IMG/VR virus record: IMGVR_UViG_2872164251_000001 | Source: a virus | Lineage: Duplodnaviria > Heunggongvirae > Uroviricota > Caudoviricetes | Reading direction: 5' to 3' (one strand) | Length of the DNA stretch: 46,293 bases | In this document: piece by piece, positions 3,018 through 26,792 of the stretch | Numbering within the stretch: the stretch's first letter is position 1 | Layout: the number at the start of each line of letters is the position of its first letter | The notes under the pieces: generated by a model | Database searches by the model: none | The model's input: only the letters and a program-made list of their open reading frames with translations | Told to the model about the DNA's origin: nothing | Made by a program: the position numbers and the translations under genes

Positions 3018-3908
3018 TCAGGCTGCCAGATCATCGTTTCCGATGGAAGCATAATAAGCTTTTTCTGCTTCTGCCGGAGGGATGTGGCCCAGCCTTTCCA
3101 GCAATCGTCGATTGTTATACCAGTCCACCCACGTTAGTGTGGCCAGTTCCACTTCTGCACGGTTTTTCCAGCTCTTACGGTGTATTACCTCCGCTTTGTA
3201 AAGACCATTGATGCTCTCCGCCATCGCGTTGTCATACGAGTCGCCTGTACTTCCTGTTGATGCCAGTAATCCGGCTTCCTTAAGCCGCTGTGTGTAGGCC
3301 AGCGATACATACTGAGAACCTTTATCACTGTGATGGACCGTGCCGGACGGTCGACGGGCCCATAACGCCTGCTCCAGTGCATCCAGCACGAATGTCGTTT
3401 CCATGGACGATGAGACCCGCCACCCCACGATGTATCCGGCAAACACATCAATGATGAACGCCACATAGACGAAGCCCCTCCATGTGCTGACGTAAGTAAA
3501 ATCAGCCACCCACAGCTGGTCAGGTCGTTCTGCCACGAACTGACGGTTTACGCGGTCGCCTGCGGCAACGGCTTTCCGGCTGATGGTCGTACGGACCTTT
3601 TTACCCCGGAGAACACCGGCAAGTCCCATAACCGCCATGAGACGTGCCACAGTGCATCTGGCCACTCTGATACCTTCCCGTAACAACTGACGCCAGACTT
3701 TACGCACACCGTATACCTTGTGATTTTCATCGTATACGCGCTGTATCTCTTTCTTCAGCCAGTCATCGCGCTGCGCACGGGCACTGCGTTTATCCGGATG
3801 ATGTCGCTGTTGCTGACAGTGGTAATACGTTGACGGGGCAATATGCAGTTCGCTGCATAGCGGTCCGACCCCGTACTGCTCACGCAGCTTATCCAGCAGT
3901 GGCATCAT
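3018..3908 (-). CDS. IS629-like OrfB transposase
   Basis: 296-aa IS3-family DDE transposase ORF overlapping OrfA. Confidence 0.8.
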
Positions 3909-4171
3909 TTTTTCCAGAGGCGGTCGAACTCCGCCTTCGCAAAATAAGCGGAAGCCTGGCGAAGGATATCGTTACTGCGGCGCAGTTCACGATTTTCACG
4001 CTCCAGCTCTTTCAGACGCTGACGTTCAGCGGTGGTGAGCCCTCCATCACCGCCCCCGGTATCCCGCTCATGCTGGCGAACCCAGACACGCAGAGTCTCC
4101 GGCGTACTTTCCAGAACCATACGGACTGCCCGTTGACGGACTTCGGGGGAAAAACGAGTATTTTTAGTCAT
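3905..4171 (-). CDS. IS629-like OrfA (shortened)
   Basis: [37 protein letters not shown]... Confidence 0.75.
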
Positions 4172-15193: not shown

Positions 15194-15629
15194 TTGCTGC
15201 TCCTCATCATATCGACCCTGCAAGGCCGATTAGTTTCTCCACAAAACAGAGAAGAACACCTGCGGTAGCAGCCGCCCGGATGGATTGGGTTATGAGCCCG
15301 TCGTCCGGTGATGCTCTTCTCTGTTTTGTAAAAAGGACGGTACCAGCCGGAAGCAAGGGTACAAACTGGTACCGCCAGGACTACACACAGCATAAAGTTG
15401 TGGTGCCGGGTGCCTCCCGGTGCCTGGCGAAGGTTGCACACCAGACGGGTGGGTATCCACAGAAGGTCGACTGTCAGCCTCAACCTTAACCCGCGTGCGC
15501 TGAGCCGCATTCACCACAACTCTAAGGATTCTCTTTGGTTGAAAATACTTAGCTGTTATGTGCCTGTCTTTTCACCACTTCAGGCTCGGTGGTATCCTTT
15601 TAAGCCCGTATACATAAAAGGAAAATCAA

Positions 15630-15875
15630 ATGACTTTTGATGAAAAAGAACTTGATAATGCAATTAATAAAATCATCGTAACGTCGCTCTTTTCCTGTCT
15701 CAGCGACACTCAGCAGAAACAGTTCTACGAATCGGCTTTCAACATGATCGAGCGTTGTTGTTTCTGCGATGCCGACGAGTTACCTGAAAAAATCAGGAAA
15801 CAGTTGGCTGATGCTCTTCGAGTGCGACTTTCTGACCAATTTTCTGAAATGTGCTCTCCGAATTTGGACAAATAG
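15630..15875 (+). CDS. Hypothetical 81-aa protein, antisense to the early-left operon
   Basis: AGGAAA RBS 7 nt before ATG; 3' end overlaps the convergent 15793-16068 ORF by about 80 bp. Confidence 0.3.
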   Translation: MTFDEKELDNAINKIIVTSLFSCLSDTQQKQFYESAFNMIERCCFCDADELPEKIRKQLADALRVRLSDQFSEMCSPNLDK

Positions 15876-16068
15876 AAAAAGGCCATTTCCATTCAGGGTC
15901 TGATGGAAATACTTCAGCCTGTTCCAAAGCACGGCGTAAAGAGAACACAACTCCAGCCATAATCTGATGTTTCCCATTGGTCCAGCTATCGCCGCTCTGA
16001 TCTACAGGGGCGGCTATGTCGTATGACCAAACGACTTCACAGTTATTGTTTAAAATCTGGACTTTCAT
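15793..16068 (-). CDS. Hypothetical 91-aa protein, first gene downstream of the PL-like promoter
   Basis: AGGTG RBS then ATG (MKVQILNNN...); occupies the N/rex-type position next to cI. Confidence 0.4.
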   Translation of the reverse strand: MKVQILNNNCEVVWSYDIAAPVDQSGDSWTNGKHQIMAGVVFSLRRALEQAEVFPSDPEWKWPFSICPNSESTFQKIGQKVALEEHQPTVS

Positions 16069-16189
16069 TTCATACACCTGCTTTAACATGAGTGCCTAGT
16101 GGCACAACATGACTCAACGAATCATCCTGGACTTCATATGCCCCAGGCGGCTACTTCGTGGGCGTCCTGCCTGTTCGTTGTTTCGCTTG

Positions 16190-16232
16190 GGTACATTATG
16201 TATCCCAAGGGTACATTGTCAAGTATAAAAAA
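16190..16232 (-). promoter_or_regulatory. PL-like early-left promoter with GGTACA-type operator half-sites (OL)
   Basis: Minus strand TTGACA-16 bp-CATAAT; overlapping GGGTACA / TGTATCCC inverted repeat. Confidence 0.45.
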
Positions 16233-16249
16233 ACCTGCCGAAGCAGGTT
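16226..16249 (-). terminator. Rho-independent terminator downstream of cI
   Basis: AACCTGCCGAAGCAGGTT hairpin followed by T-run on the minus strand. Confidence 0.55.
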
Positions 16250-16261
16250 CATAAACATTGA

Positions 16262-16936
16262 TTAGGCTTTGATTTTGTATCTTCTTGGTTTTCCTGAGAA
16301 AATCACTGTACCAATTATAGAGCAATTACCGTTGATCTTAATGTAAGGCTCAGGCCAGTTTGGGTTTAACGCTTTGAGATAACGCTGTGTCCCATCTTCT
16401 ATCAACCTTTTGAAGGTGGTTTCGCCTGTATCGTGCATCAATGCAATAACGTCGTCACCGTGGCAGGCAGGTACTTCAGGATCGACAAAAATCATGTCTC
16501 CCGGGCGGTACTCATCAATCATTGAATCACCTATCACCCGCAAGATATAAGTCATTTCCCCACAGGGTACAGGGCAGGGATACGTTTCTGCTGTGCTCAA
16601 ATCAACCTCAGAATATCCAACTTCTTTCCATGCTCCGGCCTGTACCCATGATATGACAGGGACTAATGTGATTTGTTTATTAGTGATTGAAACATCAGGT
16701 TTTTTTGTGATGTTCGTTGTCTGGTGTTCTTGATCGAGCCATCCGACAGGCAGGTCGAAACATTTTTCGATGTGTCGTGCCATGCTGTCACCGATATTTT
16801 TAGTAGCACCATCTCCCATAAACCTGCTGGTCTGGGTTGGCTCGCGATCAATCATAGTGGCAAAGGAAGAATTCCCGCCAACACCATCTCTCAGTTTTCT
16901 GGCGTTAGACCGCCGGATGTCATGGATTGTTTTCAT
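16262..16936 (-). CDS. cI: CI-type prophage repressor (HTH plus S24 LexA-like peptidase domain)
   Basis: Ala-Gly cleavage site (VQAGAW), Ser nucleophile in VIGDSM, divergent from a Cro-like gene. Confidence 0.85.
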   Translation of the reverse strand: MKTIHDIRRSNARKLRDGVGGNSSFATMIDREPTQTSRFMGDGATKNIGDSMARHIEKCFDLPVGWLDQEHQTTNITKKPDVSITNKQITLVPVISWVQAGAWKEVGYSEVDLSTAETYPCPVPCGEMTYILRVIGDSMIDEYRPGDMIFVDPEVPACHGDDVIALMHDTGETTFKRLIEDGTQRYLKALNPNWPEPYIKINGNCSIIGTVIFSGKPRRYKIKA

Positions 16937-17026
16937 AACGAAATTAAAACCCTTGTACCGTTAAGGTACAAGTGTCTTGGAGGTTCATTTCAATCATGTA
17001 ACATGTACACCGGAGGTACATATTGT
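16937..17026. promoter_or_regulatory. OR region: divergent PRM/PR promoters with palindromic operators
   Basis: Perfect 21-bp palindrome CTTGTACC-GTTAA-GGTACAAG at 16952-16972; ATGTAC-N7-GTACAT further right. Confidence 0.6.
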
Positions 17027-17227
17027 ATGAAAGCGTATTGGGACTCTTTAACCAAAGAACAGCAGGGCGAGTTGGCCGGAAAAGTTGGCTCAACACCTGG
17101 CTACTTACGGCTGGTTTTCAATGGCTATAAAAAAGCCAGTTTTGTGCTGGCTAAAAAACTTGAGCAATGCACGTCAGGTGCAATTACGAAATCTGACTTA
17201 AGACCGGATATCTATCCGAAAGATTAG
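17027..17227 (+). CDS. cro: Cro-like HTH regulator
   Basis: 66 aa, GGAGG RBS, divergent from cI across operators. Confidence 0.65.
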   Translation: MKAYWDSLTKEQQGELAGKVGSTPGYLRLVFNGYKKASFVLAKKLEQCTSGAITKSDLRPDIYPKD

Positions 17228-17258
17228 CAGAACACTTTCAATTTTTAACCACAGAACG

Positions 17259-17822
17259 ATGAGGCTAACCGTGGGTAAGCATCACTGGAAAATAGAAAAA
17301 CAGCCTGAGTGGTACGTGAAAGCTGTCAGAAAAACTATCGCGGCGTTGCCGGGTGGTTACGCTGAAGCGGCTGACTGGCTCGATGTAACAGAAAACGCTT
17401 TATTCAACCGCCTTCGTGCAGATGGCGATCAGATTTTCCCGCTGGGATGGGCAATGGTTTTACAGCGTGCTGGTGGCACTCACTTCATTGCTGATGCTGT
17501 GGCGCAGTCTGCAAATGGCGTCTTTGTGTCTCTTCCTGACGTCGAGGATGTGGACAACGCCGATATCAACCAACGCCTGCTGGAAGTCATTGAACAGATC
17601 GGCAGTTATTCAAAACAGATTCGTTCAGCAATTGAAGACGGTGTAGTGGAACCGCATGAGAAGACAGCAATTAACGATGAGCAGTACCTCTCAATTTCGA
17701 AGCTGCAGGAGCATGCAGCACTGGTCTACAAAATCTTTTGCGTTTCAGAAAGTAGTGACGCCCGCGAGTGTGCAGCTCCGGGCGCCGTGGCATGTCGTGA
17801 CTGTGGAGAAACTAACGCATGA
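17259..17822 (+). CDS. CII-like phage regulatory protein (uncertain family)
   Basis: 187-aa ORF in the cII position between cro and the replication gene. Confidence 0.35.
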
Positions 17823-18175
17823 ACAGTTTAACAACACACTACCGTCGCTCGCAACTGATTGCGCTTCCTGTACCGGGTGGAAAAGCGAAGGTGGAGTATT
17901 GCTATGCAGTAAATGTACCAGGTGACAGGGAAATTGTAACCCACAGCTTTGCAGAGTGGGCTGTGGGTGATTTCAACCGGCAGAAGGAGACAGTCCTTTG
18001 CGACAAGTTAACCGCTGGTTCAAAGAGCACTACGGAGTGCCCGTCAGAGTCATTCGTTGGGAGCCGGAAACACAACGTGTTATCTACCTCCGCGAAGGCT
18101 ATGAGCATGAGTGCTTCAGCCCGCTCGAACAGTTTCGTCGTAAATTCAGGGAAATAGAGGTCGGTCATGAGCACT
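17819..18175 (+). pseudogene. Small early gene with apparent frameshift (N-terminus in one frame, C-terminus in the -1 frame)
   Basis: Frame [32 protein letters not shown]... becomes Ser-rich junk after about 18000 while -1 frame reads [54 protein letters not shown] and ends overlapping the next ATG. Confidence 0.35.
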
Positions 18176-26237: not shown

Positions 26238-26792
26238 ATGAACGAAAATTATATTGCATATGAGACACTTGTAGCAAACCGTGCTGCTGCTGAGTGGGCT
26301 TGTTGGGCAATGATTGCATCTTGGGTGAGTGCTGGAGCTACTATTGTTACTTTGGTTTTGGCGTTCAAGGCATTGTTTACGTGGCGGGAACAAGAGAAAA
26401 CAAAAGTAAAAATAGATTTTAGGAATGCATTAAAGAAATTAAAGACAGCTCTATTATTTATGCCTGTCAATATTGACCCCGAGAAACTCAATGATGAACG
26501 AGAGCAAGTTATTGCGAAATGGCTATTTAAAGATGTAGATCTTATTAGTCAGCAAATTGAGTTGGGAGAAGAGAATGTTAAAAGATTTGATGAACTTTTG
26601 AGTATTTTCGATTGTTGCCAGTCTTCATGGTTTGCGACAGAGCACTTATTTGATAATACTGAGTTAGAAAAAGTTTGGCATGAGTTCGAGTCTAACTTTA
26701 ATAAATATATAAATGGTGGTGAGAGTAAGGATTTACTTATGAAAATGCTTGATAAGCTCATCTCTTCTAGATTTGTATTTGAGTCAAGATAA
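26238..26792 (+). CDS. Hypothetical membrane-anchored protein, AT-rich moron
   Basis: N-terminal TM WACWAMIASWVSAGATIVTLVLAF, GAGG RBS, imperfect palindrome CACTATTAACAGTG upstream. Confidence 0.55.
   Translation: MNENYIAYETLVANRAAAEWACWAMIASWVSAGATIVTLVLAFKALFTWREQEKTKVKIDFRNALKKLKTALLFMPVNIDPEKLNDEREQVIAKWLFKDVDLISQQIELGEENVKRFDELLSIFDCCQSSWFATEHLFDNTELEKVWHEFESNFNKYINGGESKDLLMKMLDKLISSRFVFESR

Follow-up and report, generated by a model that had tools for sequence, protein, structure and literature searches.

Putative operators and promoters in the immunity region of an e14/SfV-type prophage

We analyzed the surroundings of divergent cI and cro genes in a 46,293-bp stretch of phage DNA, which we will call the window. 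The original prediction of a cI/cro switch with an S24-type repressor and dyads at OR and OL is right in its main lines. We conclude, with a probability of nearly nine in ten, that the region confers immunity on a lambdoid prophage of the e14/SfV type, in which the CohE repressor acts on dyads of the form TGTAYC-N5-GGTACA at OR (between cI and cro) and at OL. The e14/SfV switch is already known: its repressor, its cro gene, and a putative operator have been annotated, and its SOS inducibility is documented. Our additions are incremental refinements, namely a third OR element, the assignment of the promoters, a two-site OL, and the removal of positions 15340-15380 from the list of operators.

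The region matches the immunity regions of e14 and SfV

Positions 16140-17060 of the window are 98% identical to both e14 and SfV. When we used BLAST to compare the window to phages, we found matches to SfV (96–98% identity) and also to SfIV, Cdt-I, a dozen Stx2c-converting phages, and others. The SfV record (U82619) labels its positions 26377-26445, which correspond to 16953-17021 of the window, as a "putative operator region," and it also annotates cI, cro, and the cI terminator. The 1.2-kb region is present in 2,164 of 5,426 complete E. coli genomes (~40%), where it is annotated as ymfK-ymfT-ymfL.

We obtained related loci from two sources. Among the IMG/VR relatives, there were 80 loci, and cI was identical in all of them. 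A set with one genome per species gave 24 loci, of which 16 were from other genera of Enterobacterales, with 73–88% identity for cI. The conservation figures for OR that we give below are from a 17-sequence alignment at the genus level.

In e14 from K-12, OR and OL are ~98% identical to those in the window, every half-site is the same, and the gene order is the same. The known biology of e14 transfers to the window. The window holds a full-length prophage: to the left of ~15500 its arm resembles that of SfV, and it also has a replication gene of the O type, whereas e14 is deleted or rearranged in these parts. SfV differs from the window in the left half of the rightmost OR site (TGTAT), in the spacers of the sites, and in the genes to the right of ~17833. 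Cdt-I and the Stx2c-converting phages are ~94% identical to the window over 16179-17833.

A putative operator dyad

The original prediction described a perfect 21-bp palindrome at 16952-16972. The sequence CTTGTACC-GTTAA-GGTACAAG is present, but only its 8-bp arms are perfect, and the 5-bp center is not palindromic. In the alignment of relatives, the conserved arms are down to 6 bp (TGTACC and GGTACA). A second inverted repeat, ATGTAC-N7-GTACAT, had also been proposed, and we found it at 17003-17021 as ATGTAC-ACCGGAG-GTACAT. The two repeats are linked by a shared core, TGTAC-N7-GTACA, and both are inside the gap between cI and cro. This core occurs just twice in the window, at 16954-16970 and 17004-17020, while 0.02 copies would be expected, and none of 100 shuffled sequences had two copies.

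We also scanned the whole window for imperfect copies of the core. There is a sole copy with one mismatch, at 16199-16215. One of the copies with two mismatches is at 16179-16195, but across the window, copies with two mismatches are at the level expected by chance (16 versus 12.9). Therefore, weak sites such as the one at 16179-16195 (OL2, see below) stand on their position and their conservation and not on counts.

A scan of the whole window for the half-site GGTACA, which had been suggested as a check, showed that it is enriched, with 25 copies instead of the expected 14.3; two of 100 shuffled sequences reached 25. Eleven of the 25 copies are in the 2.6-kb immunity region (15358-17919). These eleven include copies within genes: three in cI (16307, 16566, and 16641) and two in the homolog of ymfM (17869 and 17914).

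We propose TGTAYC-N5-GGTACA, a 17-bp dyad, as the consensus of the operator and as the putative binding site for a dimer of the repressor.

Promoters and candidate sites between cI and cro

The predicted divergence of cI and cro is borne out by the open reading frames, which lie at 16262-16936 (minus strand) and 17027-17227 (plus strand) and are separated by 90 bp. The corresponding gap in lambda is about 100 bp, so although the switch had been called compact, it is no tighter than lambda's.

The repressor's own promoter, PRM, is on the minus strand at 16943-16971, with a -35 box of TTGTAC (16971-16966), a 17-bp spacer, and a -10 box of TTTAAT (16948-16943). In the alignment of relatives, the geometry TnTAAT-N6-ATG in front of cI is conserved and a Shine-Dalgarno sequence is absent. 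We predict that PRM transcription begins with the first base of the cI start codon (the A at 16936), which would make the mRNA leaderless. In K-12, where e14 has an identical sequence at PRM, dRNA-seq found that the ymfK mRNA is leaderless, and it is one of only five leaderless mRNAs in E. coli (PMC4681348).

PR is less obvious. The promoter that we place on the plus strand at 16977-17004, with a -35 box of TTGGAG (16977-16982), a 16-bp spacer, and a -10 box of TAACAT (16999-17004), matches the consensus at 7 of 12 positions in the window, and a scan for consensus promoters did not call it. In the relatives, the columns CTTGnnG and T-A-n-n-n-T are found at fixed positions; the latter appears as TAATAT in most relatives, and CATAAT and TAGAAT also occur. 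From this placement, we predict that PR transcription starts near 17011 and that the cro leader is about 15 nt.

We consider three candidate sites relative to these promoters. The first, O-left (16954-16970; TGTACC-GTTAA-GGTACA), is the core of the 21-bp palindrome and is an exact dyad. Across the 17 genus-level loci, its half-sites are 96% (TGTACC) and 100% (GGTACA, 16965-16970) identical, while its 5-bp spacer is just 36% identical and occurs as 14 distinct pentamers. Invariant half-sites around a free spacer are the signature of a dyad that binds a dimer. O-left overlaps the -35 box and the spacer of PRM. Because it is inside PRM, it looks like an OR3-like site for autoregulation, and the second repeat is the one that covers PR. 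The 21-bp palindrome would thus repress the leaderless promoter of the repressor itself.

O-right (17004-17020; TGTACA-CCGGA-GGTACA) is the core of the second repeat and is also an exact dyad. Its right half, GGTACA (17015-17020), is invariant in the 17 loci, and its left half, TGTAYA, is 84% identical, with TGTAY being conserved. The GGAG in its spacer is kept in relatives as the ribosome-binding site of cro. O-right takes in the final base of the -10 box of PR, the predicted start of PR, and the Shine-Dalgarno sequence of cro (GGAGG). We read O-right as an OR1-like site, given these positions.

O-mid (16971-16987; AGTGTC-TTGGA-GGTTCA) is a weak putative third site that adjoins O-left and was overlooked in the original prediction. 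Its center is at about -43 relative to the start of PRM, where it overlaps the PR -35 box, which is an OR2-like position; its function as a repressor site is putative. We also looked for a further operator 20 bp from either of the exact sites, but in 16973-17003 we saw no better candidate than the adjoining AGTGTC-N5-GGTTCA. Measured from center to center, O-left and O-mid are 17 bp apart (~1.6 helical turns) and O-mid and O-right are 33 bp apart.

Perhaps O-mid is not a repressor site at all. The switch between cI and cro might have just two operators, with the palindrome as the principal operator for PR and cro and with GGTTCA as a promoter-associated element or as the target of another factor (Cro alone, or YmfL). 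There are only two exact dyads in the window, four of the ten core positions of O-mid are mismatched here, and its left half varies in the relatives, being AGTACC in 10 of 17 loci and AGTGTC in the window. Also, the 17-bp distance between O-left and O-mid is sterically unusual. However, GGTTCA (16982-16987) is invariant in all 17 of these divergent loci, even as the flanking bases of the PR spacer vary. GGTTCA is just one base away from the operator half-site, and in the 10 loci with AGTACC, it lies exactly 12 bp from that half. Nor is the palindrome well placed to be the main operator for PR, as it is at least 40 bp upstream of the predicted start and is inside PRM, whose position is set by the leaderless ymfK mRNA. 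We consider a two-operator arrangement possible but rather unlikely, and for the middle element, we favor a weak CohE site over a site for Cro only or for another factor.

Within OR, the window differs from e14 by three rare substitutions, G16974, G16980, and C17002, which are all at variable positions. Among 83 loci with an identical repressor, 82 differ from the window at one or more of these positions, mostly having A, A, and T, and only one (L075) matches. We considered whether these substitutions weaken PR, and we dropped this idea: the positions vary freely in the relatives, as expected for ordinary variation. In the -10 box, TAACAT and TAATAT each match the consensus at four of six positions, so only the -35 box loses a match due to the rare allele. 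Because the three positions are not conserved among genera, the allele is probably neutral.

Two candidate sites at OL

PL is a stronger match to the consensus than PR is. It is on the minus strand at 16195-16222 and comprises TTGACA, a 16-bp spacer, and CATAAT, which match the consensus at 11 of 12 positions; neither hexamer varies across an alignment of 19 loci. The first gene of the leftward PL operon is a homolog of ymfJ (15793-16089).

Half-sites at OL had been placed at 16190-16232. We found two dyads there, one of which extends about 10 bp to the left of that range. OL1 (16199-16215; TGTATC-CCAAG-GGTACA) fills the spacer of PL. In most relatives, OL1 is a perfect TGTACC-N5-GGTACA, with a variable spacer. 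OL2 (16179-16195; TGTTTC-GCTTG-GGTACA) is weak and lies over the -10 box and the start of PL, which we predict to be near 16188. Conservation of OL2 is limited to the right half, GGTACA. The centers of OL1 and OL2 are 20 bp apart.

The -10 box of PL (CATAAT) is within GGTACATTATGTATC (16190-16204), which is made up of the half of OL2 and the half of OL1 that face each other. In most relatives, the counterpart of 16190-16204 is a perfect 15-bp palindrome, GGTACATTATGTACC. This "outward" geometry might be an alternative dyad that could be read by a dimer of the repressor or of Cro.

Upstream of PL, the intrinsic terminator of cI (16231-16250, minus strand) was identified by a terminator scan. 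It is annotated in the records for SfV and Ayreon, and it is conserved in the relatives. Its T-run stops about 4 bp from the -35 box of PL.

Cro and the genes downstream

The cro gene (17027-17227, plus strand) is of the CroE/YmfT type and encodes a 66-amino-acid helix-turn-helix protein of the YdaS family. The product has weak matches to YdaS_toxin and HTH_3 from Pfam and matches phrog_35 (transcriptional repressor; E = 3e-15). It is identical to Cro from SfV and to K-12's YmfT at 65 of 66 positions. The one difference is at codon 48, which encodes cysteine in the window and in SfV but tyrosine in YmfT from e14; this position is downstream of the part that aligns to HTH_3.

Cro is followed in the PR operon by homologs of ymfL and ymfM, with the same gene order as in e14 of K-12. 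The ymfL homolog (17259-17822, plus strand) is CII-like: it matches Phage_CP76 (E = 4.3e-13) and phrog_101, which is described as a CII-like activator. The ymfM homolog (17819-18157, plus strand) encodes 112 amino acids, matches phrog_1170, and has the position and length of YmfM. YmfM is an SOS-inducible inhibitor of cell division from e14 and is responsible for the SfiC phenotype (bioRxiv 10.1101/2020.11.19.390815). The immunity type that we describe controls this division inhibitor and is common to Cdt-I and the Stx2c-converting phages. The operator consensus and the promoter map should be useful for predicting heteroimmunity and the damage-induced induction of toxin-encoding phages.

The repressor and its predicted induction

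The cI-type repressor (16262-16936, minus strand; 224 amino acids) is 100% identical to CohE, also known as YmfK, from e14 of K-12, and it is one amino acid apart from the cI protein of SfV. Residues 93-212 match Peptidase_S24 (PF00717; E = 1.5e-26) across profile positions 1-116 of 116, and the C-terminal domain matches the structures of UmuD', LexA, and the C-terminal domain of lambda CI. The putative autocleavage site, an Ala-Gly, was correctly recognized: PVISWVQAGAW aligns with PVFSHVQAGMF of lambda CI, so that Ala100-Gly101 corresponds to the lambda cleavage site, which is numbered A111-G112. The serine nucleophile that is expected in S24 peptidases is also present, as GDSM (Ser138) aligns with GNSM (S149). 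In addition, we found a lysine that would be the general base, as TFKRL (Lys176) aligns with TFKKL (K192) of lambda CI. The chemistry that the original prediction read from these residues is correct, and the repressor is a member of the LexA/lambda-CI family of self-cleaving (S24) repressors, with cleavage being predicted by homology.

The N-terminal domain is the putative DNA-binding (helix-turn-helix) part. A Pfam search found no match to a helix-turn-helix family in this domain, and its matches to phage repressors are weak: among solved structures, SPC32H Rep (5d50; E = 5e-4) and a phage CI (7nkv; E = 0.05), and among protein families, the repressors phrog_12107 and phrog_5736.

The repressor shares its S24 catalytic domain with LexA and UmuD, along with the logic of RecA-stimulated cleavage, which is predicted here. 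The operators are different: their core is TGT-N11-ACA, while the LexA box is CTGT-N8-ACAG, so LexA should not bind them. No exact LexA box is present anywhere in the window, and boxes with one mismatch are at chance level (19 versus 15.6 expected).

Studies of e14 and of relatives of SfV are consistent with induction by DNA damage. CohE has been described as a CI-like, SOS-responsive repressor, and SfiC/YmfM as SOS-inducible and not repressed by LexA (bioRxiv 10.1101/2020.11.19.390815). After DNA damage, the e14 genes ymfJ (on the PL side) and ymfM (on the PR side) rise by 4–4.8 log2-fold, but only from about 50 minutes onwards (PMC11002266). These kinetics are slower than those of LexA-repressed genes, and the authors attributed the late induction to slow CI-type cleavage (PMC11002266). 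The e14 genes share an iModulon with sulA and recN, and this iModulon is active under oxidative stress. SfIV, which carries the same cI and cro as SfV (100% identity), was isolated by UV induction (PMC3851460). Finally, cohE was scored as essential in the Keio collection (PMC5992433), which is expected of an active repressor. A broad literature search, covering papers other than the SfV genome paper and the e14 analysis, turned up no experimental determination of the operators of CohE or CroE, and no footprinting, EMSA, or in vitro cleavage results on CohE.

Could the repressor instead be stripped off its operators by a LexA-controlled antirepressor, as in Salmonella SPC32H and the Gifsy phages, rather than cleaving itself with the aid of RecA? 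The best match of the N-terminal domain to a solved structure, SPC32H Rep, is to a repressor that is inactivated by an antirepressor. But a full S24 domain is present, with the Ala-Gly, the serine, and the lysine all aligned to lambda CI. The window also lacks exact LexA boxes and has those with one mismatch only at chance level. Furthermore, the late induction of e14 fits slow CI-type cleavage (PMC11002266), and induction of SfiC reportedly does not depend on LexA repression (bioRxiv 10.1101/2020.11.19.390815). These observations make an antirepressor very unlikely.

A proposed mechanism and a comparison with lambda

Returning to self-cleavage of CohE, we propose the following mechanism. In the lysogen, CohE dimers would bind the 17-bp dyads with the sequence TGTAYC-N5-GGTACA. 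The two OL sites, whose centers are separated by 20 bp, would cover the spacer, the -10 box, and the start of the strong promoter PL. At OR, occupancy of O-right would shut off cro-ymfL-ymfM and the replication genes. O-left, in the -35 box and spacer of PRM, would mediate negative autoregulation of the leaderless cI mRNA. O-mid, centered near -43 relative to the PRM start and overlapping the -35 box of PR, would be at the position from which lambda CI, bound to OR2, activates PRM. When DNA is damaged, activated RecA would stimulate the slow self-cleavage of CohE at Ala100-Gly101, via Ser138 and Lys176. The operators would then be left empty and both PL and PR would fire, after which Cro (CroE/YmfT) presumably takes the same sites. 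In this scheme, the assignment of proteins to sites, the affinities, any activation of PRM by CohE at O-mid, and the precise start of PR are all inferred.

The architecture is similar to lambda's in several ways. In both cases, cI and cro are divergent and about 90–100 bp apart, the cI mRNA from PRM is leaderless, and the operators are 17-bp dyads. One site is on the -10 box and the start of PR, another overlaps the -35 box of PR and is centered near -43 relative to the PRM start, and a third is within PRM. The C-terminal domain of the repressor is of the S24 type, with aligned Ala-Gly, Ser, and Lys residues. On the other hand, the sequence of the operators and the N-terminal domain of the repressor are unrelated to lambda's, and Cro is a YdaS-family helix-turn-helix protein. 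OL has two sites instead of three. The sites in OR are 17 and 33 bp apart, compared to 23–24 bp in lambda. In lambda, OR1 is stronger than OR2, which is stronger than OR3, but here, the best dyad is on PRM and not on PR. Homologs of N or cIII have not been reported for the SfV-type phages (PMC3851460).

Having the best palindrome on PRM is the reverse of the affinity order in lambda, so lambda's logic may not transfer. The abutment of O-left and O-mid is another reason not to assume lambda's affinity order or its cooperativity: with 17 bp between their centers, dimers at these two sites would be on different faces of the helix, which would be awkward for lambda-style cooperative binding. Instead, binding to O-left and O-mid could be mutually exclusive, or a higher-order oligomer of CohE could bridge the three sites in OR and the two in OL, which is ~750 bp away, with negative autoregulation being dominant. 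If so, negative autoregulation would replace the cooperative activation of PRM that is seen in lambda. We view this scenario as unlikely and raise it tentatively.

Terminators, an STnc100-like RNA, and other observations

The 21-bp palindrome was also flagged by the terminator scan, because its minus strand reads CTTGTACCTTAACGGTACAAG and then GGTTTTAATT, which would be a hairpin in front of cI that halts leftward readthrough past cro; we rejected this extremely improbable function on the basis of conservation, since the arms are just 6 bp long in the relatives and no U-tract is conserved (just the ATT of the PRM -10 box is kept), and also because the same dyad occurs at PR and PL without a T-run and because a terminator just upstream of the repressor's start would block establishment of the repressor.

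Related half-sites had also been noted near 15340-15380, but we found no dyad with the geometry of the operator there, even when allowing two mismatches, and we rejected this region as an operator. Its GGTACC and GGTACA hexamers instead belong to a minus-strand terminator hairpin. Specifically, the minus strand of 15327-15542 has a full-length match to STnc100 from Rfam, albeit with a score of 39.6 bits (E = 7.8e-7), which is below the gathering score of 47. At the gathering threshold, Rfam has no match in the immunity region. STnc100 is a prophage-borne small RNA of Salmonella. The 15327-15542 sequence is predicted to form a multi-branch fold, after which come a 13-bp hairpin, GGCGGUACCAGCC...GGCUGGUACCGUC, and UUUUU (z = -3.3). 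In this hairpin, the two GGTACC hexamers form the arms of the stem, and GGTACA is in the loop.

The STnc100-like region is in the PL operon and is conserved in SfV, SfII, SfIV, and ST64B. Immunity by transcription termination has reportedly been described for SfV, and the STnc100-like RNA may be related to it.

Toward the left end of the window, there is a match (120 bits) to the ALIL pseudoknot at 3834-3950 on the minus strand, overlapping the open reading frame at 3018-3908 on the same strand. ALIL is a programmed-frameshift element of the IS3 family, and this match indicates that an IS3-family insertion sequence is present there.
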